Source: Alphaproteobacteria bacterium
Lineage (GTDB): Bacteria > Pseudomonadota > Alphaproteobacteria > GCA-2731375
NCBI GenBank assembly: GCA_965226475.1
Contig: CBDDDJ010000004.1
Coordinates: forward strand, 1,821,963-1,885,962
Reading direction: 5' to 3'
DNA length: 64,000 nucleotides
In this document: positions 3,483 to 58,604 of the stretch, one piece after another
How positions within the stretch are numbered: the first letter of the stretch is position 1
How the letters are laid out: the number at the start of each line of letters is the position of its first letter
Translations under genes and position numbers: made by a program
Notes under the pieces: generated by a model
Seen by the model: only the letters and a program-made list of their open reading frames with translations
Database searches by the model: none
What the model was told of the DNA's origin: nothing

Positions 3483-3548
3483 GACGGAACATTACACGAA
3501 CATGCTGCCGACGCCCACCAGAAACTCAACATCTCGTCAAACCGGGCT

Positions 3549-3599
3549 CAAAGGGATAAGCCCTTTGGCTTAATCGAAGTGTCCAAGGAGGACCGGAAC
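3549..3599. repeat. Terminal inverted repeat T2 (right end of the IS1595-like element; it also lies immediately 5' of IS3 orfA)
   Basis: It is the reverse complement of T1 over about 38 bp, apart from a short central mismatch block. Only about 10 nt separate it from the orfA ATG. Confidence 0.7.
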
Positions 3600-4010
3600 A
3601 TGGCCGATAATTTTGAGAAGAAAGTTGCTGTTGATGGGCCTGTGGTAAATGCGGGCGAGCTTGGCTCGTCCACGTTTTCCCCAGGCCAGGCTTTGCCGGC
3701 AGGCCCGCTGGGACTTGGCCAGCGATGGACGGTGGCGCGCAAGCGTGAGGTCGTTCCGCGGCTTTTGCGTGACGAGCCGGTGCAACTTCTGTCGCGCCAG
3801 TTGGGCGTAGAGATCTTCCGGCTCGAGCAGTGGCGTGAGAAAGCGATCGGCGGGATCGACGCCTCGCTCAAGCGACGCAAGGGCGATCCGGTGCAGGCGG
3901 AACTGGATAGCGCCATGAAGCGGATCGGAGAGTTGACCATGCAGGTGGAACTGCTGGAGGCCAAGACGGAGACCTTCGGCCCTTTGGGGCGGCGGAGGTC
4001 GCGGCGATGA
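3600..4010 (+). CDS. IS3-family transposase OrfA (small HTH/leucine-zipper protein)
   Basis: 136 aa, MADNFEKK...RRKGDPVQAELDSAMKRIGELTMQVELLEAKTETF. It overlaps orfB in an ATGA arrangement. The orfB reading frame is open from 3911, which gives a roughly 100-nt -1-frame overlap typical of IS3 programmed frameshifting. Confidence 0.75.
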   Translation: MADNFEKKVAVDGPVVNAGELGSSTFSPGQALPAGPLGLGQRWTVARKREVVPRLLRDEPVQLLSRQLGVEIFRLEQWREKAIGGIDASLKRRKGDPVQAELDSAMKRIGELTMQVELLEAKTETFGPLGRRRSRR

Positions 4011-4912
4011 GTGCCGCCACCTCGCCCGGCACGGGTCTGGCCTACGGCCTGCGGCGGGTCTGCGCCGCCTGGGGCATGGCCCGCTCCTCGTTCTACGCCA
4101 TGACCTCCGGCCAGCACGCCGAGCAGCCGCCGGCAAAGCGTCGGGGACCGAAGCCCGCGATCTCGGACCAGGCGCTGCTGGTGGCGATCGAAGCCGACCT
4201 GGAGGCATCGCCCTGGGAGGGCGAGGGCTACCGCAAGGTCTGGGCTCGGCTTCGGGTCTGTCGCGACATCCGGGTTGCCCGCAAGCGGGTGCTCCGCCTG
4301 ATGCGCGAGAACAATCTGCTCTCGCCCCATCGCTGCCGCCGCCGTGGCGGCAATCCCCATGACGGTGAGATCATCACTCATGCCCCGAACCTCATGTGGG
4401 GCACCGATGGCGTTCGGGTGTTCACGGTGGACGACGGCTGGGGCTGGATCTTCACCGCCGTCGAGCATTGGAACGCCGAGTGTGTCGGCTGGCATGTCTG
4501 CAAGCGCGGCGACCGCTTCGCCGCCCTGCAGCCGATCTCCATGGGGCTTGCCGGGCTGTATGGCTCGACCGCGGCCGGCGCGGCTCGGGGGCTGGCCTTG
4601 CGGATGGATCACGGCTCCCAGTATCTGTCGGACCACTTCACCAACCAGATCAAGTTCTGGGGCATCCAGCCGTCCTACGCCTTCGTCGCCGAGCCCCAGA
4701 CCAACGGCGTCGCCGAGCGGTTCAATCGCACGCTGAAGGAACAGATCATCCATGGTCGCATCTACCGCAACATCGCGGAGCTGCGGGACGCCGTCCGCGA
4801 CTTCGTCGAACTCTACAATGCCCAGTGGATCGTCGAAAAGAACGGCTACCTGAGCCCCGCTCAAGCTCGTCAGGCGTGGCACGCCGCGATCTCAATCAGG
4901 CCCGCCGCGTGA
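4007..4912 (+). CDS. IS3-family transposase OrfB (integrase catalytic core, rve domain)
   Basis: 301 aa. It has an N-terminal HTH (GLRRVCAAWGMARSSFY) and a DDE core (...WGTDGVRVFT..., ...RMDHGSQYLSDHF..., ...QTNGVAERFNRTLKEQ). It lies in the -1 frame relative to orfA. Confidence 0.85.
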   Translation: MSAATSPGTGLAYGLRRVCAAWGMARSSFYAMTSGQHAEQPPAKRRGPKPAISDQALLVAIEADLEASPWEGEGYRKVWARLRVCRDIRVARKRVLRLMRENNLLSPHRCRRRGGNPHDGEIITHAPNLMWGTDGVRVFTVDDGWGWIFTAVEHWNAECVGWHVCKRGDRFAALQPISMGLAGLYGSTAAGAARGLALRMDHGSQYLSDHFTNQIKFWGIQPSYAFVAEPQTNGVAERFNRTLKEQIIHGRIYRNIAELRDAVRDFVELYNAQWIVEKNGYLSPAQARQAWHAAISIRPAA

Positions 4913-4920
4913 GACAAACT

Positions 4921-4948
4921 TGTGTCCAAGGAACCGGGTGCGCTACAG
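4921..4948. repeat. Terminal repeat T3 (solo or short right-end copy of the T-type terminus)
   Basis: tgtgtccaagg is the exact inverted complement of ccttggacaca at 2310-2320. The adjacent aaccgggtgcg pairs imperfectly with ggacccgattt of T1. Confidence 0.6.
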
Positions 4949-4962
4949 CTTTAGGCATCGTT
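4949..4962. repeat. Right copy of the perfect 14-bp direct repeat (ctttaggcatcgtt)
   Basis: It is identical to 2280-2293. Confidence 0.7.
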
Positions 4963-5050
4963 AACGCTTGCACCTTTAAATTTCCAGGCTAGACTGCGCG
5001 CCCAAGGGGTTGATTCCGCGACCTCTTGGCGGTTGTAGGGGAACGTTCGC

Positions 5051-5596
5051 GTGGAGCATGTCGATTCCGGCCGCCGCGCCCTGTTGCGCGTGGCACTGCC
5101 CGCCGTCGCGGCGATGACGCCCCTGGGCGCGCTCGCCCGCGCCGTGCCGGCCAAGCCCCGGCGGCTGAAGCTGCACAACCTCCACACTGGCGAAAATCTG
5201 GTGACGGTCTATCACGCCGACGGCCGCTATCTGGCCGAACCGCTCGGCGAGATCGACTGGATGCTGCGCGACTGGCGCACCGACGAGCGCACGGCCATGG
5301 ACCGCCGCCTGCTGGACCTGCTGCATGCCCTCCACCTGGAGATGGACTCGACCCGGCCCTTCGAGATCATTTCCGGCTATCGCTCGCCCGCGACCAATTC
5401 GATGCTGGTGAAGAGGAACGGCGGCGTCGCCAGGAAAAGCCTCCACATGAAGGCGATGGCGGCGGACGTGCGCCTACCCGACCGCGATCTCGGCACGCTC
5501 TACCGCGCCGCCCGCCGCTTGAAGCTCGGCGGCGTCGGCATTTACCGCAAGGCCGACTTCATCCACGTCGACACCGGCCGCGTCCGCTACTGGTAG
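5051..5596 (+). CDS. DUF882 (YcbK/MepK-like peptidase M15A family) protein, Tat-exported
   Basis: 181 aa. It has a twin-arginine motif (SGRRALLRVAL) and a DUF882 core (FEIISGYRSPATNSMLVKRNGGVARKSLHMKAMAADVRLPDRDLGTLYRAARRLKLGGVGIYRKADFIHVDTG). The E. coli homologues ycbB and ycbK are neighbours. Confidence 0.8.
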   Translation: MEHVDSGRRALLRVALPAVAAMTPLGALARAVPAKPRRLKLHNLHTGENLVTVYHADGRYLAEPLGEIDWMLRDWRTDERTAMDRRLLDLLHALHLEMDSTRPFEIISGYRSPATNSMLVKRNGGVARKSLHMKAMAADVRLPDRDLGTLYRAARRLKLGGVGIYRKADFIHVDTGRVRYW

Positions 5597-7234
5597 GCGG
5601 CTGCCCCTCGCATCAAGGCAATGAGGCCCGCCGGATCGGCCGGCGGCCCATCCCCACGCCACGCGACATGCTGGTCGGGCCGGGCGAGGACCAGGGCCCG
5701 GTCGTAGGGTGCCGTCGGCGCCAGATCGAGCAGGGTCAACGGTACGCCACGCGCTTCGGCCGCGTCCAGCAGCGGCCGGACCTCGATGCCGGGATCGAAG
5801 CGCAGCAGCGTGTAGCCCTCTCCCAGGCGATCGTGGAGGCTTCGGCCATCCGCCAGAAACACATGCGGCAGGCGGCAGCCCGGCACGGTGGAGGGAGTGA
5901 ACGCGGCCATGGTGTAGCCCGGCGCGGCCTCGCCGTCGTGGGCGATGATGGGTGAATTTTCATAGAAACAGCCAAAATTGAGGCCGGCGCAGCAGTATTG
6001 CTGGACGTTCAAGGCATAGGCGCGTTCGCCGAGGGCCCGGCGCGCGGCCTCGCCCGCTTCGTCCTCATCCTCGATATTGGCGGGCACGGCGCCGCGCTGG
6101 CCGGCCATGGCGTGGGCGTGGTCCATCACGAAGCGGGAGACTTGGCGGGTGATCGGCCCGCGCTCGGCCTCGTGCGCGTCGAGGATGGCTTCCCCGGCCC
6201 AACCGGCGAGGTGCGCGGCCAGCAGCCAGGCGAGATTGGCGGCGTCCGCGATGCCGGCGTTCATGCCGTAGCCGGCATAAGGCACCCAGATGTGGGCGGC
6301 ATCGCCGGCGATGAAGACCCGGCGGTCCCGGATCCTGTCGGCGACCAGGCGGCGGCCGATCCAGTCAATCGGCGCCAGCAGCTCACACCCGAAGTCGGCG
6401 CCGACACCCAGGATCTCTCGGATCGCCCAATCGCGGTCCACCGCGTCGAAGCCGGCCTCTTCCGGGCGCAGGCAGTTGTGCACCACCCAGCGCTCGCGCC
6501 CGTCGATGGCGTAGACGTTGCCGCTGCGCCGGGGGTTGAGGGAGAAGGTGGCCCAGGCCGGCGCCTCCCGTTGCCGCTCGATCAGCTTCGGCGCGCGGAT
6601 ATAGCTCGACTGCACCCGCTGGATCACCGCGTCACCCTCGAGGCGCGCGCCCATGGCGCGGCGGATGGAGGAGCGGCCGCCGTCGCAGCCGACCAGATAA
6701 CGACAGCGAATCCGGGTCTCGGTCCCGTCCTCCAGGCTCCGGGCGGTCGCCAGCACGTGGTCGTCCGCCTGCGTGAAATCCTCGACCGTGGCGCGGGTCA
6801 TGATGCGCGCGCCGGCCATGGCTTCGGCGTGGGCGAAGAGGATCGGCTCCAGGAAGATCTGGTTGATGCGGTGCGGCGGTTCCGCCGTCGGCCAATCGGT
6901 GTCCGGGCCGTTCACGGCGGTGAAGCGGTCGCGCCGGCAGGGGATCGGAATCCGCGTGAGTTCGCGCCCGGTGAAGCTGGTGCGGTAGGAGACGTCGTTG
7001 GGATAGTCGGCGGGCAGGCCGGCGTCGCGCAACGCACCCGCCACAGCCGAGGCGGCGGAAGATCTCCATCGAGCGGGCGACGACGTGGTTGCACTTGGGC
7101 GGCGGTGGCTCGCTCCGCGCGCGCTTCTCCACCACCATGACCTCGATGCCGCGCCAGGCCAGATCCGTCGCCAAGGTCAGGCCGACCGGCCCGCCGCCGA
7201 CGATGAGGACGGGGACTTCGATCTCGCGCATCAT
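5587..7234 (-). pseudogene. FAD-dependent aromatic-ring monooxygenase (PheA/TfdB-like), split by a 1-nt frameshift near 7040-7050
   Basis: The N-terminal Rossmann segment MMREIEVPVLIVGGGPVGLTLATDLAWRGIEVMVVEKR...ARSMEIFRRLG is in one frame, starting at 7234. The remaining 485 aa, from ...AGALRDAGLPADYPND to the C-terminus, is in the adjacent frame. The junction lies at ggcTgtggcggg. Confidence 0.6.
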
Positions 7235-7270
7235 GGGGCCTCCGGGCTCGGAGCGATTACGGTTCGCGTC

Positions 7271-7702
7271 TCAATCGGCATTCAGCGCCACCACCACGAT
7301 CAGGGCCTTGCCGGCGACGGTGAGGTGTTGGTGCGCGTTGGCGTTGAGCGTCACCATCACTTCGAGCTTGCCCCCGGGCGGTCCGGCGAGATGGAACCGG
7401 GGACCACGGACTTCCGTGAACATCTCGCCGCCGACGTAGAGATGGGCATGGCCCTCGCCCGCGACGTGGGCGCCGCCCGCGTGTTCGGGCGCGAAGCGGA
7501 AGTTCGTCGTCCTGAGCTCGATATTCCAGCCGCCACCCTTGTCCCCGCGTGCCACGACGGCGAGGGTCGGGGCGCCGGCGCCGGGCGCGAGGTCGAGCGA
7601 GCCGGGCAGCCGGTGGCCCGCGCCGTAGTCGGCGGCGAACGCATTGCTCGCCAGGCTCGGACCCAGGGCAAACGCGACGGCGGTTCCAGAGCCTCTCGTC
7701 AT
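7271..7702 (-). CDS. Hypothetical secreted, His-rich small protein
   Basis: 143 aa. There is a predicted signal peptide (AVAFALGPSLASNAFA|AD). It has several His pairs (EHAGGAHVAGEGHAHLY, NANAHQH). No family was recognised. Confidence 0.4.
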   Translation of the reverse strand: MTRGSGTAVAFALGPSLASNAFAADYGAGHRLPGSLDLAPGAGAPTLAVVARGDKGGGWNIELRTTNFRFAPEHAGGAHVAGEGHAHLYVGGEMFTEVRGPRFHLAGPPGGKLEVMVTLNANAHQHLTVAGKALIVVVALNAD

Positions 7703-19909: not shown

Positions 19910-20317
19910 TCAGGGCCGGAAGAGCGGGATCAACGCGTCGTAGACCGCGCCCACCGTGGCGGGCTTGGGGACGAAGCCGTCGGTCCGCGCCAGCCCCGCG
20001 ATCTGCTTCGCGGGCGGTTCGGCGTTGGAGGCGGTGATCACCAGGATCGGCAGTTCGCTGATTCGCGTATCGTCGCTGTCGCGGACCGATTGGGCGAGCT
20101 CGTGGCCGCTCATCTCCGGCATCACCAGGTCGGTCACCAGAACGTCGAAGCGCCCGGGCGCCTCGCGCAGCAGAGCCAGTGCCTCGGCGCCGTTCCGCGC
20201 AACAGTGACTTGGCGGAAACCGACGACGCTCAGGATCCGCTCCACCATCTTGGCGGAGAAATCAGAATCCTCGACCACGAGTGCTTCCTTCGCGCTGAAG
20301 GCGGACACGTCCCGCAT
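19910..20317 (-). CDS. Single-domain response regulator (CheY-like receiver)
   Basis: 135 aa, EALVVEDSDFSAKMVERIL...FDVLVTDLVMPEMSGHELA...LPILVITAS...KPATV. Confidence 0.75.
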   Translation of the reverse strand: MRDVSAFSAKEALVVEDSDFSAKMVERILSVVGFRQVTVARNGAEALALLREAPGRFDVLVTDLVMPEMSGHELAQSVRDSDDTRISELPILVITASNAEPPAKQIAGLARTDGFVPKPATVGAVYDALIPLFRP

Positions 20318-20661
20318 GGCCTCTGAAGCCTTTCGGGTTTGGTCCGGGCGGACGCGTGATCCTAGAACATTTTTCGCCTACGCGGATATCGTCGCGCCAT
20401 CGGTCCCGCCGAACCAACCGTCCCGAGGAAGCGGGAGGCCAAAGCCGCGCGAACATGGTCCGGCATGGGACGCGGCGGGAATGCCGAACGTTCCATGTCG
20501 CGGATTGGATCGGCTGCGGATCGGTCGCGGCGCCACGGATATTCACCGAAGGGTGAAAGTGACTCTGGACATGACGGTAACCCGTATTTGGAATGGGGAG
20601 CAAAAGAAATATCAGATACTACTTCTGATCAAATTCAATTTCGATTATTTTCGGTTAATTC

Positions 20662-20689
20662 TTGACAAAGGTCGAGATCAAGCTATTTC
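20662..20689 (+). promoter_or_regulatory. Candidate sigma-70-type promoter in an AT-rich island upstream of small-protein paralogue A
   Basis: TTGACA at 20662-20667, a 16-nt spacer, then TATTTC at 20684-20689. Local GC is about 40% in a roughly 67% GC genome. Confidence 0.3.
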
Positions 20690-20744
20690 CCCATGCGGCA
20701 TCGAATGGTGATGTTGTTTGACACTGGGACTGTTGGTGACCGAC

Positions 20745-21026
20745 ATGGCTGCAAGTAAGGCGATCGACGAAAACACACTTACGCGCATGGAGATAAGAAA
20801 ACTCAATGCGTTGAAAAGATCGGTTGGTGATGAAATTGCGAATCGCATGTTCGCCGAATGGTTGGCGAATAAGCCGGGTCCTTCGTCGATCCAGGTCGAC
20901 CGAAACGCCGAAATGATCGGGCAAGCGTTACAGGGCTTGATCGACGCCGGAAAACTATCGATTCCCCGGGGCGGCTATCTGTTGCGCCGCGGTCGCGGAC
21001 GAGTGATCATCGAACGGCCGGCGTAG
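20745..21026 (+). CDS. Small conserved protein of unknown function (about 93 aa), paralogue A
   Basis: MAASKAIDENTLTRMEIRKLNALKRSVGDEIANRMFAEWLANKPGP...LIDAGKLSIPRGGYLLRRGRGRVIIE. It shares the motifs MEIRKLNAL, EW, LID.G and PRGGY..RRGRGRV with 38951-39238. Confidence 0.55.
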   Translation: MAASKAIDENTLTRMEIRKLNALKRSVGDEIANRMFAEWLANKPGPSSIQVDRNAEMIGQALQGLIDAGKLSIPRGGYLLRRGRGRVIIERPA

Positions 21027-21167
21027 GCCCGACGGGACACGGCGTCCCAGAAGGTTACGGCGAGCCGCGATGGGTTCCGCTTATTGCGGTTTTGCATATT
21101 AGGTCGAGCCAGGAATAACGAAGGGTTGGCGCTGCGCCCACGCGGGGCCGCGACAGCTTTGGCGTGC

Positions 21168-21902
21168 TCAGTGTTCCGCTTTCATGCTGGCCTTGCGTTC
21201 GTACATTTCCCGGTCCGCCGCCGCCAGCGTGTCCGTCACGGATTCGCCGCCCTGGAAGGTGGTGATGCCGTAGGCCAGCCGAAGGGGCAGCTGCGTCCCC
21301 TCCCAGGAAACAGGTTCGTTCTCGATCGCCTCGCCCAATTGGACCGCCTTTTCGCGCGCGCCCTGCCTATCCGTTTGCGAGAGAATGACGCCAAATTCGT
21401 CCCCGCCGAGACGCCCCACGACATCCGATTCCCGAACCCGTTCCAGCAGTATGCTCGCGACATGCAACAACGCCTTGTCGCCCGCGGCATGCCCGTAATT
21501 ATCGTTGATCGACTTGAAACCGTTGACGTCGAAATAGATCAGGCTCGAGGGAGTCTGATACCTTTCGGCAAAAGAAATGGCGCGGGTCAGTTCGCGAACG
21601 AAGGCGCGCCGGTTGGCGATCGGCGCCAACGTGTCGAGATCGGCGAGTTTCTCCATCTGGTTCAGGCGTTCGTGCGTGCGGTCCAGTTCACGCCGCAGCG
21701 TTTTCACCTCCTGCATCAAGACCATGATCGCCTCGCGCACCTTGGGCGTTAGTTCCGCCTCCGGAACGCCCAGGATGGTCGCGCTGTCCGCTGGCGCGCG
21801 CGTGGTCGACGCCTCGGTGGATTGATAGGCCCGCGCGGCGTCCCGGCTGCCGACGCGGGTCTGCGCGGGCCTACCGACAGGTTTGTTGTCGCCGATTTTC
21901 AT
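21168..21902 (-). CDS. GGDEF-domain diguanylate cyclase with an N-terminal coiled-coil
   Basis: MKIGDNKPVG... ...YFDVNGFKSINDNYGHAAGDKALLHV...RLGGDEFGVIL... The longer 335-aa ORF has an implausible N-terminal extension. Confidence 0.8.
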   Translation of the reverse strand: MKIGDNKPVGRPAQTRVGSRDAARAYQSTEASTTRAPADSATILGVPEAELTPKVREAIMVLMQEVKTLRRELDRTHERLNQMEKLADLDTLAPIANRRAFVRELTRAISFAERYQTPSSLIYFDVNGFKSINDNYGHAAGDKALLHVASILLERVRESDVVGRLGGDEFGVILSQTDRQGAREKAVQLGEAIENEPVSWEGTQLPLRLAYGITTFQGGESVTDTLAAADREMYERKASMKAEH

Positions 21903-22041
21903 TGCGTGCCTACCCAAACGACCCCAAACCAACAAGGCGCAAAAGGCCTCTCGCGGGTGACCGAACTTCGGGATTCGTGCCGCGGCACCGGCACCCGGAC
22001 CAGTGACGCAGGAAAAGATTACCAAAACTTCTAGAATCGTT

Positions 22042-22056
22042 GAACGAGAATCGCGG
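22042..22056. repeat. Left copy of a perfect 15-bp direct repeat (gaacgagaatcgcgg) flanking the IS element. It is a probable target-site duplication
   Basis: It is identical to 23463-23477 and is flush with both inverted-repeat ends. Confidence 0.7.
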
Positions 22057-22071
22057 TGTCGAGAACATTTC

Positions 22072-22110
22072 GAATTGACCGCTTTATGTACCATATGAAT
22101 TGACCGCTTT
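22072..22110. repeat. Two subterminal direct repeats GAATTGACCGCTTT inside the left IR region
   Basis: The copies are at 22072-22085 and 22097-22110. Confidence 0.6.
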
Positions 22111-22126
22111 TGTTGTGGTTGTTGGG

Positions 22127-22178
22127 CCTGTGGATAAGTGGGGAACCCGCCGTGGCGGGTTGTCCACTTATCCACAGG
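22127..22178. repeat. 52-bp near-perfect palindrome inside the IS, downstream of the transposase stop
   Basis: The arms are cctgtggataagtggggaacccgcc and its reverse complement, matching at 23 of 25 positions. The centre is aacccgcc-gt-ggcgggtt. Confidence 0.7.
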
Positions 22179-22199
22179 CCGGGCGCGCGTCGAAGCGGT

Positions 22200-23381
22200 T
22201 CACTTGGCCGCTCTGCTGTTCTTGGTTTCGTCGAGGACGGTGCCGTCGGCCTGATATCGGGCCAGCCGGCGCGGGCCGTGGAAGACCGCCAGGGTGCCGC
22301 CGGAGTATTCGTGGACCCGCACCGATGCCTTGACGTAATGGCGGCGGTGGCGATCCTCCGGGATCTGCAGCACCAGCCGCTTGTAGCGCACCGTGTTGTC
22401 GTTGCCGACGATCCGGTCCTCCTGGATGCACAGGATGTCGTCGAGCGATCCGGTGAAGGGGACAAAGGCCGAGCCCTCGGCTTCGGCCGGCACCGCGAAA
22501 CGGGCGTTGTGGCGGGGCAGATAAATCTCGCGCAGGAACGCGTTGGCCTCGGCCATCGTGGTGATGGCGGCCAAGCGCAGTTCCTGCGGCAGGCGATTCT
22601 GCAATGTCGCGAACATGCGCTCCGAGCGCCCCCGGGCCTCGGGGGAGTAGGCCGGGATCAGTTCGATGCCCAGCTGGCCCAGGGCTCGGCCCACCTGGGT
22701 CGGGTTGTTCTTGTCCACCTTGCCGCCGGCCTCGGGCGTGTGCCAGTAGTGCGAGGCCCGGTCGGCGTAGAGCGAGCAGAACAGCCCCCGGACCTCGATC
22801 ACCTCGCCCAGGGCCCGGAAGCTGCTCATGGTCCCCTCTTCGTCGACGAAGAAGGCCGAGTAGATCTCGCTGGTTGCGTCATCCATGGTGACGATCAGGT
22901 CCCACCACTGCCCGGGAACCCATTGGTGGGTCGAGCCGTCCTGGTGCAGCATCATGGCGGGCAGGGCGCGGCGCGGCCGCTTGCGCCGGTGCGCGCCTCG
23001 CCGCGGTGCCGGACGTTTGCGCCCGTGGGCCTGGAGCGTCAGGCGGACCCAGTTGTAGCTCCGCGTGAAGCCGTGCTCATCGAGCAGCTTCTCGTGGAAG
23101 TGCTTGGCCGTGAAGTCCCAGTAGCGCGTGTCGAACAACTCCAGAACCTCCATCACCGTGTCCACCGGCACCCGGTGCCCCGAGACCTTGCCCAGCCGGC
23201 GGTCATACAGACCCTCCGCGCCTTCCGCCTCAAAGCGACCCCGCCAGCGCCGGAACGTTCGCTCGCTCATCCCCAGGATCGACGCCGCCTCCGACTGGCT
23301 CAGTCGCCGCCGCTTCGCGCGCTCCAGAATCTCCTCGAACTTCATCTGCCGTAGTCCTTGCAACACCTCGGCCCGCTTCAT
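22200..23381 (-). CDS. DDE transposase of the ISNCY-family-like / IS481-like type
   Basis: 393 aa. It has an N-terminal HTH (SQSEAASILGMSERTFRRWRGRF) and a catalytic region (MLHQDGSTHQWVPGQWWDLIVTMDDATSEIYSAFFVDEEGTMSSFRALGEVIEVRGLFCSLYADRASHYW). Confidence 0.8.
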   Translation of the reverse strand: MKRAEVLQGLRQMKFEEILERAKRRRLSQSEAASILGMSERTFRRWRGRFEAEGAEGLYDRRLGKVSGHRVPVDTVMEVLELFDTRYWDFTAKHFHEKLLDEHGFTRSYNWVRLTLQAHGRKRPAPRRGAHRRKRPRRALPAMMLHQDGSTHQWVPGQWWDLIVTMDDATSEIYSAFFVDEEGTMSSFRALGEVIEVRGLFCSLYADRASHYWHTPEAGGKVDKNNPTQVGRALGQLGIELIPAYSPEARGRSERMFATLQNRLPQELRLAAITTMAEANAFLREIYLPRHNARFAVPAEAEGSAFVPFTGSLDDILCIQEDRIVGNDNTVRYKRLVLQIPEDRHRRHYVKASVRVHEYSGGTLAVFHGPRRLARYQADGTVLDETKNSRAAK

Positions 23382-23462
23382 CGCCGCCCTCCTCGAAGGC
23401 GACGTTCTAAACCGGACAGATCACATGGTACCTACGGCGGTCATATCGTGTGTTAGCGACAC

Positions 23463-38950: not shown

Positions 38951-39238
38951 TTAGCCGGCGGCCTGGACCACGACGCGGCCACGGCCACGGCGAACCGTGT
39001 AGCCACCACGCGGCAGGCCCTTGATCGCGCCACTATCGATCAGGGCCATGACGGCACTAGCAATGGCTTCGGCCGTCTTGTCGACCGGCGCCGCGTCTGG
39101 CGCGGCCGGGCGGGACTTCTGCCACTCGACGAACGCCTTGGTGCCGAGATCGTCGCCGATTGACTTCCGCAAGGCGTTGAGTTTGCGGATTTCCATTTTG
39201 GCCAAGGAAGATTCGTCGAGACTTGGTTTGCGAGCCAT
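38951..39238 (-). CDS. Small conserved protein of unknown function (95 aa), paralogue B
   Basis: MARKPSLDESSLAKMEIRKLNALRKSIGDDLGTKAFVEWQKSRPAAP...LIDSGAIKGLPRGGYTVRRGRGRVVVQ. It is a paralogue of 20745-21026. Confidence 0.55.
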   Translation of the reverse strand: MARKPSLDESSLAKMEIRKLNALRKSIGDDLGTKAFVEWQKSRPAAPDAAPVDKTAEAIASAVMALIDSGAIKGLPRGGYTVRRGRGRVVVQAAG

Positions 39239-39276
39239 CGTGTAACTTTCCGTAAAAGGTTGACGGGAAGTTGTTG

Positions 39277-39303
39277 AATATACGTTTCCAACAAACTCGG
39301 CAA
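39277..39303 (-). promoter_or_regulatory. Candidate sigma-70-type promoter for paralogue B in an AT-rich divergent region shared with clpS
   Basis: On the minus strand the region reads TTGCCG, then 15 nt, then TATATT. Local GC is about 40%. Confidence 0.3.
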
Positions 39304-39420
39304 GCCTTCAATTCGCCTAACATGGAATTTATTTGCCAGCAGATGCAAGATGGCGACATTGTCGAGATTATGGTAGAGTCTGATCCACCCGGCTAGCTTC
39401 GGTTTCCGAATGATTCGCCG

Positions 39421-39735
39421 ATGACTGCAATGAGCAACACAACGACACGACCGCGCGCAAAGACACGGGCGAAGACGGAACAACCCCGTCTATATAAAGT
39501 CTTGCTTTTGAATGATGATTACACGCCTCGCGAATTCGTCGTCGCGGTCTTGCGGGCCGTCTTCCAGATGAACGACGATCAGGCTTACCGGGTGATGATG
39601 ACGGCGCACCGCCTCGGCTCCGCCGTCGTCGCGGTCTATGCACGCGATATCGCCGAGACCAAGGCGACGGAAGGCACCGAGGCGGGCCGCCGCGCCGGAT
39701 ATCCGCTCATGTTGTCGACCGAGCCGGAGGAATAG
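39421..39735 (+). CDS. clpS: ATP-dependent Clp protease adaptor ClpS, with no adjacent clpA
   Basis: ...PRLYKVLLLNDDYTPREFVVAVLRAVFQMNDDQAYRVMMTAHRLGSAVVAVYARDIAETKA... Confidence 0.85.
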   Translation: MTAMSNTTTRPRAKTRAKTEQPRLYKVLLLNDDYTPREFVVAVLRAVFQMNDDQAYRVMMTAHRLGSAVVAVYARDIAETKATEGTEAGRRAGYPLMLSTEPEE

Positions 39736-54047: not shown

Positions 54048-55106
54048 GTGAACTCGGATCCCCGCCGCGTCCTCGGCATCGAGACGAGCTGCGACGAAAC
54101 GGCGGCGGCACTGGTCGACGGGACCGGCCGGGTGCTGGCCGAACGGGTCGCCAGCCAGACGGCGGAGCACGCGCCCTATGGCGGCGTGGTGCCGGAGATC
54201 GCCGCCCGCGCCCATGTCTCCCGCCTCGACCACATGATCGCCAGGGTGATGGCCGAGGCGGATCTGCCCTTGGCCGAGATCGATGCCGTCGCCGCCACCG
54301 CCGGCCCGGGCCTGATCGGCGGCCTGCTGGTCGGCCTCTCGACCGCGAAGGCGATCGCCTCCGCGCTGGAGAAGCCGCTCGTCGCCGTCAATCACCTGGA
54401 GGGCCATGCCCTCAGCGCCCGCCTGGTCGCGGAGGCACCCTTCCCCTATCTGCTGCTACTGATCTCGGGCGGGCATTGCCAGCTGCAGCTGGTCCTGGGC
54501 GTCGGCCGCTACCGGCGCCTCGGCACCACGATCGACGACGCCGTGGGCGAGTCCTTCGACAAGACGGCGATCCTGCTGGGCCTCGGCTATCCGGGAGGCC
54601 CGGCGATCGAGCGCGCGGCCCGGACGGGCCGGGCCGACGCCCATGAGCTGCCCCGGCCGATGCGGGGCCGCGAGGACGCGAACTTCTCCTTCTCCGGCCT
54701 GAAGACGGCGGTCCGCCACCTGACCGAGCGCGAACCCGAGGCCCGGAGGGAAGACGTGGCGGCGAGCTTCCAGGCCGCCGTGGTCGACGTGCTGCTCGAC
54801 CGCGCCCGGCGGGCCATCGTCATGGCGCGCGCGGCCGAACCCGATATCGGGCACTTCGTCGTCGCCGGCGGGGTCGCCGCCAACCGGGCGATCGGCGCGG
54901 CGCTGGCGAAGCTCGCGGCCGCCGAGGGCCTAGCCCTGGTGGTGCCGCCGCCGCGCCTGTGCACCGACAACGGCGCCATGATCGCCTGGGCCGGGATCGA
55001 GCGGCTGCGCCTCGGCCTGGTCGACGGCCTGGACGCACCCGCCCGTGCCCGTTGGCCCCTGGACCCCGACGCCAAACCGGCGCCCTTCGCCGGCGTCAAG
55101 GCCTAG
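54048..55106 (+). CDS. tsaD: tRNA N6-adenosine threonylcarbamoyltransferase (Kae1/Gcp family)
   Basis: It has a GTG start, [18 protein letters not shown]..., then ...[10 protein letters not shown]..., then ...[14 protein letters not shown]. It is divergent from hemC, as in many alphaproteobacteria. Confidence 0.85.
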
Positions 55107-55172
55107 TGTGGTGGATTTGAAATTCCTCCAATTATTGGGGCAGGCTCCGTGAGGAACTTCAAGTCCACCACA
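55107..55172 (+). repeat. Long imperfect hairpin or MITE-like inverted-repeat element immediately after the tsaD stop
   Basis: Arms of 15 bp (tgtggtggatttgaa and ttcaagtccaccaca, 14 of 15 complementary) flank a 36-nt AT-rich spacer. An AT-rich stretch follows. Confidence 0.4.
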
Positions 55173-55355
55173 ATTACATAGCGTGAAAAAGAGATTCATA
55201 AAAAACTTCATTCACCATGCTCACGAAGTCGCGATAAGCTGGTGGCCACCGGTGCCACTTTTCGGCGGCCAGGCCGCGCGCCATTTCCACGATCTCGCGC
55301 CGCTGGTTGTTCGGAGTTGAAATGTAGGGGGAGAAAAACCAGTCACTGCGACACA

Positions 55356-57457: not shown

Positions 57458-58276
57458 TCAGCCCCCGTGGACCCACCAGAGCAGGCCGCCACCCAGCATC
57501 AGCCGGTAGACGACGAAGACCGTGTAGTTGGCGCGGCGGACCCAGAACATCAGAAAGGCGATGCCGAGAAGCGCCGCGACGAAGGCGAGCGCGCCGGCCG
57601 CGAGCGCGGCGATGCCGAAGTCCAGATCGCCGCTCGCCACCACTTTGACGGTGGCATAGCCGCCCGCCGCCAGGATCGCCGGGATCGACAGCAGCATGGA
57701 GAAGCGCGCCGCCTCCCCCCGCTCCATGCCCAGGAGCCGACCGCCGATGACGCAGGCGCCGGCCCGGCTGGTGCCGGGGATGAGCGCGAAGCACTGGAGG
57801 AGGCCGATCAAGAACGCCCGCCGCCAGTCCAGCCTGTCGACGGTGCCCGCGACGAGCGGCGAACGGTCGACCGCATAGAGGATGACGGCGAAGACGATGG
57901 TCGCCCAGGCGATCACCTCGACGGAACGGAGCATCTGGTCGATGTCGAGGCGGGTGACCAGGATGCCGGCGACGATCAGCGGGATCGTTCCGACGATGAG
58001 CAGCATCAACAAGGGCGTGCCGGCCGTCCCGCGACGGCGCGGCAAGGCCATGAGCGCCGACCAGAGACGCCGCACCTCGTCGCGAAAATAGATCAACACC
58101 GCGACCAGGGTGCCGACGTGCACCGCGATGTCGATCTCCAGCCCCTGGTCCGGCCAGTCGGCGACCAGCGGCACCAGGATCAGATGCGCGGAGGAGCTGA
58201 TCGGCAGAAATTCGGTCACGCCCTGGATCAAGGCCAGGACGACGATCTGCACCATGCCGAGGGGGGCGTCCGCCAT
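57458..58276 (-). CDS. uppP: Undecaprenyl-diphosphate phosphatase
   Basis: MVQIVVLALIQGVTEFLPISSSAHLILVP..., then ...LIPGTSRAGACVIGGRLLGMERGEAARFSMLLSIP. Confidence 0.85.
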   Translation of the reverse strand: MADAPLGMVQIVVLALIQGVTEFLPISSSAHLILVPLVADWPDQGLEIDIAVHVGTLVAVLIYFRDEVRRLWSALMALPRRRGTAGTPLLMLLIVGTIPLIVAGILVTRLDIDQMLRSVEVIAWATIVFAVILYAVDRSPLVAGTVDRLDWRRAFLIGLLQCFALIPGTSRAGACVIGGRLLGMERGEAARFSMLLSIPAILAAGGYATVKVVASGDLDFGIAALAAGALAFVAALLGIAFLMFWVRRANYTVFVVYRLMLGGGLLWWVHGG

Positions 58277-58604
58277 GATTTGCCCACTTTCACGTCAGTG
58301 GTCCTGCTCGCCCACGCCGAGACAGCCGTCGGCGCGGTGACCGCCAAGCGGTTATAGCACGACCTGTCGGCACCATCCCCGACGACTTAATAATAACGAA
58401 ACAGGACTAAATTCAGAATTGGCATCGCGTGGACTTGACCGAAATCTCATGAATTCCCCCACTGCTGTCCCAACGTTTCTCTTCGGGTTTTGGTTAGCTG
58501 ATTGATTTCACAATCAGATTACAGATCTTTGCCTGTCACCGATTTGGACATCGTTTGATCTGTCCACCATGCTCGCCGCTTGAGCCTTCAGGGGAGAATG
58601 GCGC

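Follow-up and report, generated by a model that had tools for sequence, protein, structure and literature searches.

A family of small basic proteins with two predicted modules, possibly nucleoid-associated, encoded by uncultured bacteria

What are the products of two small genes that resemble each other but no described family, and that are each preceded by some of the most AT-rich DNA of their surroundings? The genes, here called copy A and copy B (Table 1), lie in a stretch of 64,000 nucleotides (the window) from contig CBDDDJ010000004.1 of an Alphaproteobacteria bacterium (assembly GCA_965226475.1), and a sequence-only reading of this stretch had proposed them as paralogues of an undescribed small nucleic-acid-binding or regulatory protein. 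Both open reading frames are present where that reading had placed them, and the motifs that it had listed as shared, MEIRKLNAL, EW, LID.G and PRGGY..RRGRGRV, are all found in both copies. The two proteins are 46% identical over 80 residues (BLASTP, E = 2e-26), with pI values of 10.5 (copy A) and 10.3 (copy B). A longer reading frame for copy A, starting with TTG at 20718, is unsupported by the family alignment. The GC content at third codon positions (GC3) is 0.63 in copy A and 0.75 in copy B, against a window mean of 0.85, and the 5' coding part of copy A is AT-rich, with a GC content of 0.44–0.50.

Table 1. Features of the two family loci, numbered from the first nucleotide of the window
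Feature	Position	Strand	Remarks
Copy A, family gene, 93 aa	20745..21026	+	ATG 20745, stop 21024-21026
Copy B, family gene, 95 aa	38951..39238	-	Architecture of copy A, with a one-residue insertion before PRGGY
Single-domain response regulator (Response_reg)	19910..20317	-	Pfam; divergent from copy A; syntenic in L081
GGDEF diguanylate cyclase	21168..22175	-	Pfam; downstream of copy A, convergent
clpS adaptor gene	39421..39735	+	Pfam; divergent from copy B
Intergenic region between copy B (-) and clpS (+), 182 nt, with AT-rich island	39239..39420
-35-like TTGACA, copy A	20662..20667	+	Read from the sequence; CTTGAC conserved in L001
-10-like TATTTC (inside GCTATTTCC), copy A	20684..20689	+	16 nt past the -35; putative
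Weaker promoter-like element, copy B	39277..39303	-	TTGCCG (39303-39298), 15-nt spacer, TATATT (39282-39277); putative
AT-rich island upstream of copy A	20539..20700		Minimum 0.373 at 20539-20688, the lowest 150-nt stretch in the window
AT-rich island upstream of copy B	39189..39338		150-nt minimum 0.427, the third lowest in the window

The immediate neighbours of both genes had been described as divergent regulatory genes. This is correct for the receiver gene beside copy A and for clpS beside copy B, but not for the GGDEF gene, which converges on copy A from downstream and whose real start probably lies further in, near 21905. No clpA gene was found beside clpS. The GGDEF gene (GC3 of 0.71) and clpS (0.73) also fall below the window mean, so that the compositional anomaly reaches beyond the family genes and their promoters. 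An insertion sequence (IS) occupies 22057-23461, between the GGDEF gene and purE, with a transposase at 22200-23381 that carries HTH_28, HTH_29 and HTH_23 domains. At the equivalent spot the related loci L001 and L081 carry a different IS (HTH_29 and DDE_3), and L008, L033 and L050 contain copies of the window IS (∼78% identity), the one in L033 ending 89 nt upstream of a family gene. The IS site beside the AT-rich islands may be an insertion hot spot.

Copy A is a chromosomal locus that has been kept vertically. Positions 18.7–26.9 kb of the window are collinear with L001 and L081 at 77–85% nucleotide identity, the shared order being acyl-CoA dehydrogenase, receiver, family gene, GGDEF, an IS and purE-purK, and the family protein P0003, from a syntenic locus, is 78% identical to copy A. 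Copy B has an orthologue of its own in P0019 (75% identity). The possibility that one copy is conserved and the other a recent duplicate is contradicted by these separate orthologues and, moreover, copy A is nearer to most family members (53–62% identity) than to copy B (48%), as expected of old paralogues rather than of a recent duplication.

The statement that neither protein can be assigned to a known family was borne out. Pfam (E up to 10) and NCBIfam gave no usable match for either copy, the only PHROGs matches, at E = 0.008 or worse, were to families without a known function, PADLOC gave none, and there was no match among PDB sequences in single-sequence or profile searches. Foldseek comparison of two AlphaFold2 models with the PDB and BFVD produced no match at E ≤ 0.001, and literature searches on new nucleoid proteins or on RGRGR motifs in bacteria yielded no description of the family. 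A confident assignment to a characterized family of unrelated function, which the sequence-only reading had named as the outcome that would count against it, did not emerge from the profile searches. A phage or anti-phage defence protein was rejected on the negative results of the PHROGs, PADLOC and phage-genome searches, and a eukaryote-type AT-hook (PF02178) for want of an AT_hook match, the RGRGR[VI] motif being free of proline and placed inside a predicted hairpin. Nor did fold comparison reveal the three-helix bundle and wing of a winged helix-turn-helix regulator.

The family is large and its sequence is tightly conserved. Copy A alone retrieved 384 clusters at 90% identity, a profile run against 1.84 billion representatives retrieved 496 at 50% identity, and a profile of a divergent 93-aa subfamily retrieved 4,926 or more at 90% identity. 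In the 35-sequence alignment of the main branch, residues L12, R18, K19, L20, L23, S26, G28, F36, W39, D52, R75, G77, Y78 and the R82-G-R-G-R86 motif are invariant. The part that remains constant in both branches is N-terminal (L.KGQ.RKLNALRKS.G....F..W), whereas the 93-aa branch has a RAKGKGASGF hairpin (GY.V.RAKGKGASGF) in place of RRGRGR. Members of this branch (L093-L096, P0275-P0387) lie on contigs of 48–57% GC, often near transposases, resolvases and recombinases. Database names are "hypothetical protein" throughout, save for one evident misannotation.

A scan of one genome per species, covering 185,579 species, returned 230 loci. The best 80 of these 230 all come from metagenome-assembled genomes, mostly bearing the labels Alphaproteobacteria, Rhodospirillales or Kiloniellales, a small number belonging to Gemmatimonadota, Longimicrobiales and other groups; the family occurs almost only in uncultured bacteria. 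Several copies may be present in one genome: a single contig of 4.0 Mb carries at least six and a chromosome of 6.2 Mb at least five, and two further genomes have a minimum of four each. Searches of 72,556 plasmid records and, by tblastn, of 50,697 phage genomes came back empty, and only two loci were found among the 2.9 million contigs of IMG/VR; a plasmid or phage origin was rejected on the absence of matches in the plasmid and phage collections. Variants of the domain arrangement were also observed. P0147 and P0180 are tandem duplications of the whole domain, with the RGRG hairpin kept in one half only, and of the pair P0163 and P0140 one carries N-terminal pentapeptide repeats and one a C-terminal E3_binding (peripheral subunit-binding) domain. 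Pentapeptide repeats are a DNA-mimic type of repeat. Four longer proteins (P0271-P0274, 130–234 aa), in which two or three family repeats are joined exactly at KG|Q, look like chimeras of paralogues created in metagenome assembly and were not used as evidence; one of them bears the name "biotin operon repressor" at source, apparently in error.

The AlphaFold2 models, built from 35 and 115 aligned sequences and having mean pLDDT values of 79.5 and 80.4, agree on an N-terminal module in which helices 14–27 and 29–42 form a hairpin, and on a variable, low-confidence linker at residues 43–52. The predicted C-terminal module consists of a helix (residues 53–67) and a β-hairpin (residues 79–90) with R82-G-R-G-R86 at its tip. 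Within the modules pLDDT is 82–92, while pTM is 0.37–0.40, a low value which we read as two modules that may not be fixed relative to one another or as an obligate oligomer. The mean pI is ∼10 in both subfamilies, the net positive charge being located in the C-terminal module (+5 for copy A, +4 for copy B). An extra low-complexity tail rich in Lys, Arg, Ala and Pro, at either the N or the C end, was found in 25 of 150 representatives at 50% identity. Such basic tails are typical of bacterial histone-like proteins.

Both genes had been said to follow strongly AT-rich DNA, and the islands upstream of them do include the lowest and the third-lowest GC content of the whole 64 kb. The window has a mean GC content of 0.681 (S.D. 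0.058) in sliding 150-nt stretches and falls below 0.50 at six places only. The other four are 58381-58530 (0.413), upstream of a membrane-protein gene (57458-58276, minus strand), 55094-55243 (0.447), 21996-22145 (0.453), located at the end of the IS and upstream of the GGDEF gene, and 3486-3635 (0.487). The upstream region in L001 is equally AT-rich (0.38), and its sequence outside the promoter core is not conserved relative to copy A; in the copy B orthologue L099 the promoter core is kept and the AT-rich island is not. Across the family, the position of the lowest-GC 150-nt window was determined in each locus of ∼12 kb, a measure independent of gene calls. In 34 of 70 loci this minimum is found no more than 350 nt upstream of the family start. 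When loci with similar flanks were collapsed by single linkage to 32 independent contexts, it lay upstream in 13 (binomial p ∼5e-6 against an expectation of 10%, a generous one that supposes one intergenic region in ten), and in the remaining ∼60% it lay elsewhere. The proposed check whether orthologues always neighbour AT-rich tracts gave a mixed result: the association recurs in the high-GC branch, but it fails in L099 and in the low-GC 93-aa subfamily, which has no AT-rich upstream region, and copies directly behind an HU gene, where the upstream sequence is coding, are further exceptions. An Rfam scan of the whole window produced no matches, and hence none in the islands, and a search of both window islands for operator-like inverted repeats revealed nothing convincing. 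The AT-rich island may be just a strong promoter with an upstream A/T element, which would fit every reading considered below.

Plausible sigma-70 promoters had been claimed for both genes. For copy A the claim has substance, as a TTGACA-N16-TATTTC arrangement is kept in L001, where the CTATTTCC block of the promoter region is identical and both hexamer regions and blocks of the ∼50-nt leader are conserved. The element of copy B is weaker, with suboptimal spacing, although L099 retains CTTGCCGA and ATAT. Neither island gave a promoter in a strict sigma-70 consensus scan; the element of copy A escaped it because its -10 hexamer is weak. In the wider family, the hexamers TATAAG, CTATAA, TGCTAT and TGATAT are 40–80-fold enriched at -100 to -20 as compared with the flanks. 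Of 72 upstream regions, 39 contain a -10-like hexamer (4% of control windows) and 27 an extended TGn -10 (TGnTATAA-type; 0.6% of control windows), counts that are upper estimates as the 72 regions include some related loci. The position of the -10 element peaks 40–50 nt before the ATG, and this enrichment at a peaked position argues for a self-contained strong promoter. EcfG, RpoH and sigma-54 patterns were absent upstream of 83 loci. The proteins are probably abundant or highly expressed.

The genomic contexts of the family were surveyed by collapsing nearest neighbours at 60% identity (59 upstream and 53 downstream) and scanning them with Pfam. No recurrent gene partner was found in the 112 non-redundant neighbours, most of which are unrelated metabolic genes. 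The family gene is a stand-alone unit in most copies, and the pairing with regulatory genes noted for the two window copies is not a trait of the family, there being no common partner. Two patterns stand out. The first is that some members are carried on integrative elements, where identical proteins recur in different flanks. In the block around P0046 the order is RecQ, a topoisomerase (Topoisom_bac), a full-length GyrB-like protein, HU, the family gene, an outer-membrane β-barrel protein, a 125-aa protein of unknown function and a RecD2-like helicase, with a phage-type integrase nearby, and the block is identical on two contigs of one sample (L082 2423-9388 and L083 176-7843). The P0053 module comprises the family gene, a HATPase_c_2 (RsbW-like) kinase and a LysR regulator, and is found at ∼94% DNA identity in four different flanks (L085-L088, about 4569-7283) that contain an integrase, integrase remnants, group II introns, IS66, HipA and conjugative primase-like genes. 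The block shared by these loci begins ∼430 nt upstream of the family gene, and in L085 it is immediately flanked by an integrase remnant.

The second pattern is adjacency to HU/IHF-like genes. In L009, L014, L020, L043, L056, L063, L064, L065, L069 and L082-L084 the family gene immediately follows such a gene on the same strand, the HU proteins of these loci having identities down to 53%, and members of an unrelated HU clade lie divergently upstream in L018, L027 and L054. Chance would place an HU gene beside the family gene in ∼0.1 of ∼32 independent contexts, by a rough estimate that assumes a few HU genes per genome. One or two subclades account for the whole of the HU link.

The sequence-only observation is confirmed, and its cautious interpretation is supported in part. 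From the basic charge, the Lys/Ala/Pro-rich tails, the HU adjacency and the location in mobile elements we infer that these proteins may bind DNA or RNA. A small, basic, probably highly expressed protein of two modules, with an exposed RGRGR hairpin, basic tails, HU and topoisomerase neighbours and multiple gene copies, has the profile of a nucleoid-associated protein, and the reading tentatively preferred here, at somewhat less than an even chance, is that the family consists of DNA-binding proteins of the nucleoid-associated type, Lsr2-like by analogy. A fuller version, which appears rather unlikely as a whole, would make it a convergent xenogeneic-silencer-like family of high-GC uncultured Alphaproteobacteria, with a polymerizing hairpin, an RGRGR motif for the minor groove of AT-rich DNA, autoregulation, and element-borne copies that together with HU/IHF serve to silence the elements themselves. 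In the mechanism proposed with the preferred reading, the N-terminal helical hairpin (L.KGQ.RKLNALRKS.G....F..W) would mediate dimerization or oligomerization and the variable, flexible linker would connect it to the C-terminal helix and β-hairpin, whose Arg-Gly-Arg-Gly-Arg tip would enter the narrow minor groove of AT-rich DNA, in the manner of the Lsr2 SGRGR motif or the β-arms of HU/IHF. The AT-rich stretch upstream of the gene would double as a strong promoter and as a site of autoregulation. The host's own set would then be made up of chromosomal copies such as A and B, while element-borne paralogues, often beside an HU/IHF gene of the element, would help the elements to fit into the host nucleoid. 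The analysis establishes the family, its conservation, its composition and contexts, the two-module prediction and the promoter-like motif, while DNA binding, AT preference, oligomerization and autoregulation are inferred. The AT-rich upstream DNA and the promoter-like motif count in favour of the DNA-binding reading as well. The setting of GRGR in a predicted β-hairpin, the RAKGKGASGF subfamily, the ∼60% of contexts without an upstream GC minimum and the mostly unrelated neighbours speak against the DNA-binding reading.

The Arg/Gly motifs and basic tails would suit an RNA-binding function just as well. An RNA-binding or ribosome-associated protein, such as an RNA chaperone or translation factor, would account for RG/RGG-type motifs and basic low-complexity tails, which are common in RNA binders, and for multi-copy, stand-alone genes like those of the csp type; the strong promoter-like motif fixed in position, the AT-rich upstream DNA and the AT-rich 5' coding region of copy A would all serve high expression. 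However, no ribosomal, RNA-processing or translation gene was found among the 112 non-redundant neighbours, no RNA-binding domain profile matched, and the partners that do recur encode HU/IHF, topoisomerase, GyrB-like and helicase proteins, so that this explanation seems distinctly unlikely. It is doubtful, too, that the family comprises sequence-specific transcription or recombination-accessory factors of integrative elements (repressors, excisionase-like or maintenance proteins), with the chromosomal copies as domesticated forms or remnants. Some members (L087 and L085) do have an integrase gene or integrase remnant no more than ∼0.5 kb away, at the edge of an element, the module of family gene, HATPase_c_2 kinase and LysR regulator moves as a unit, and IS elements, resolvases and transposases are frequent nearby. 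Yet copy A and the P0065 group are found in ordinary syntenic metabolic surroundings without an integrase, the plasmid, phage and IMG/VR collections provided zero, zero and two matches, respectively, and no convincing inverted-repeat operator was seen in either window island. Moreover, the sequence is near-invariant over hundreds of contexts, which argues against a diversified operator specificity.

Finally, the proteins might not bind nucleic acid at all and instead be protein-protein adaptors or regulators, with the RsbW-like kinase, ClpS, the response regulator or c-di-GMP proteins as partners and with islands that are ordinary divergent promoters. The signalling and proteolysis-adaptor genes next to the window copies, the HATPase_c_2 anti-sigma-type kinase that follows in one subclade and the fusion of one member to the E3_binding protein-interaction domain point in this direction. 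This is nevertheless very unlikely, as the family has no recurrent partner, the separate acquisition of basic tails at one end or the other would be difficult to account for unless the ligand is a polyanion, and the AT-rich upstream DNA is far more extreme than the other intergenic regions of the same loci.

Xenogeneic silencers are at present classified in four families only, H-NS, MvaT, Lsr2 and Rok (PMC8476142). Should the preferred reading as a nucleoid-associated DNA-binding family be true, uncultured lineages would organize and police their DNA with proteins that current annotation misses, and a gene now labelled "hypothetical" could be named and given a function open to testing. The other four low-GC stretches of the window would be candidate targets if AT-rich DNA is what the family binds. 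To our knowledge, the known silencer families were all found in cultured model organisms, and since that classification MucR has been proposed as an H-NS-like silencer in Alphaproteobacteria. If the proteins bind RNA or other proteins instead, this is still a large uncharacterized family with a domain definition, conserved residues and a promoter signature.

One of the closest known systems is Lsr2. The family proteins are of similar length (∼95 aa versus 112 aa), basic and encoded by high-GC hosts, they are predicted to share the order of N-terminal module, flexible linker and C-terminal module, and paralogues of both are carried on mobile elements. The GRGR sequence, invariant in the RRGRGR subfamily, is the core of the Lsr2 SGRGR motif. 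The Lsr2 N-terminal module is a dimer built of β-sheet and helix, while that of the family is a predicted helical hairpin. Furthermore, the family motif sits at a predicted β-hairpin tip, whereas in both Lsr2 and H-NS it lies in a loop before a helix. The SGRGR of Lsr2 is an AT-hook-like RGR motif that inserts into the minor groove (PMC8476142). The resemblance to the Lsr2/H-NS motif that the sequence-only reading had noted is therefore literal at the level of the motif for Lsr2 and does not extend to homology with Lsr2 or H-NS. Homology to Lsr2 (PF11774) was rejected, with no Pfam match and an hhalign probability of 0.2% for the 115-sequence family profile against a hand-entered sequence of M. 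tuberculosis Lsr2, and homology to H-NS (Histone_HNS, PF00816) was rejected on the lack of a profile or fold match and on a different order of secondary structure.

The two predicted modules would nonetheless match the general plan of xenogeneic silencers, an oligomerization domain, a linker and a DNA-binding domain. With H-NS, Bv3F and MvaT there may be a functional analogy, that of a small oligomerizing protein with a Q/RGR-type minor-groove hook (PMC8476142), possibly extending to AT-rich autoregulated promoters and to plasmid- or island-borne paralogues (see also PMC7074111). HU/IHF proteins are likewise small and basic, the Arg-rich β-hairpin could act as their β-arms do, and the family gene often lies directly beside an HU/IHF-like gene; on the other hand, the family's hairpin is single and short, where HU/IHF have long paired arms, and its tip is without the intercalating proline. 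No profile match to HU/IHF (Bac_DNA_binding, PF00216) was found, making these proteins neighbours and not relatives. MucR/Ros and GapR are, like most of the best-matching family loci, alphaproteobacterial, and they occupy the niche of AT-rich DNA binding proposed here for the family (see PMC7710501 and PMC10746212). A C2H2-type zinc finger as in MucR/Ros is impossible in copy A, which has no Cys or His, and no MucR match was obtained; GapR was rejected because there was no DUF2312 profile match. To judge by the curated libraries and the literature searched, the family is new, both as a family and in its predicted architecture, and as a functional kind it probably belongs with the known small nucleoid proteins.
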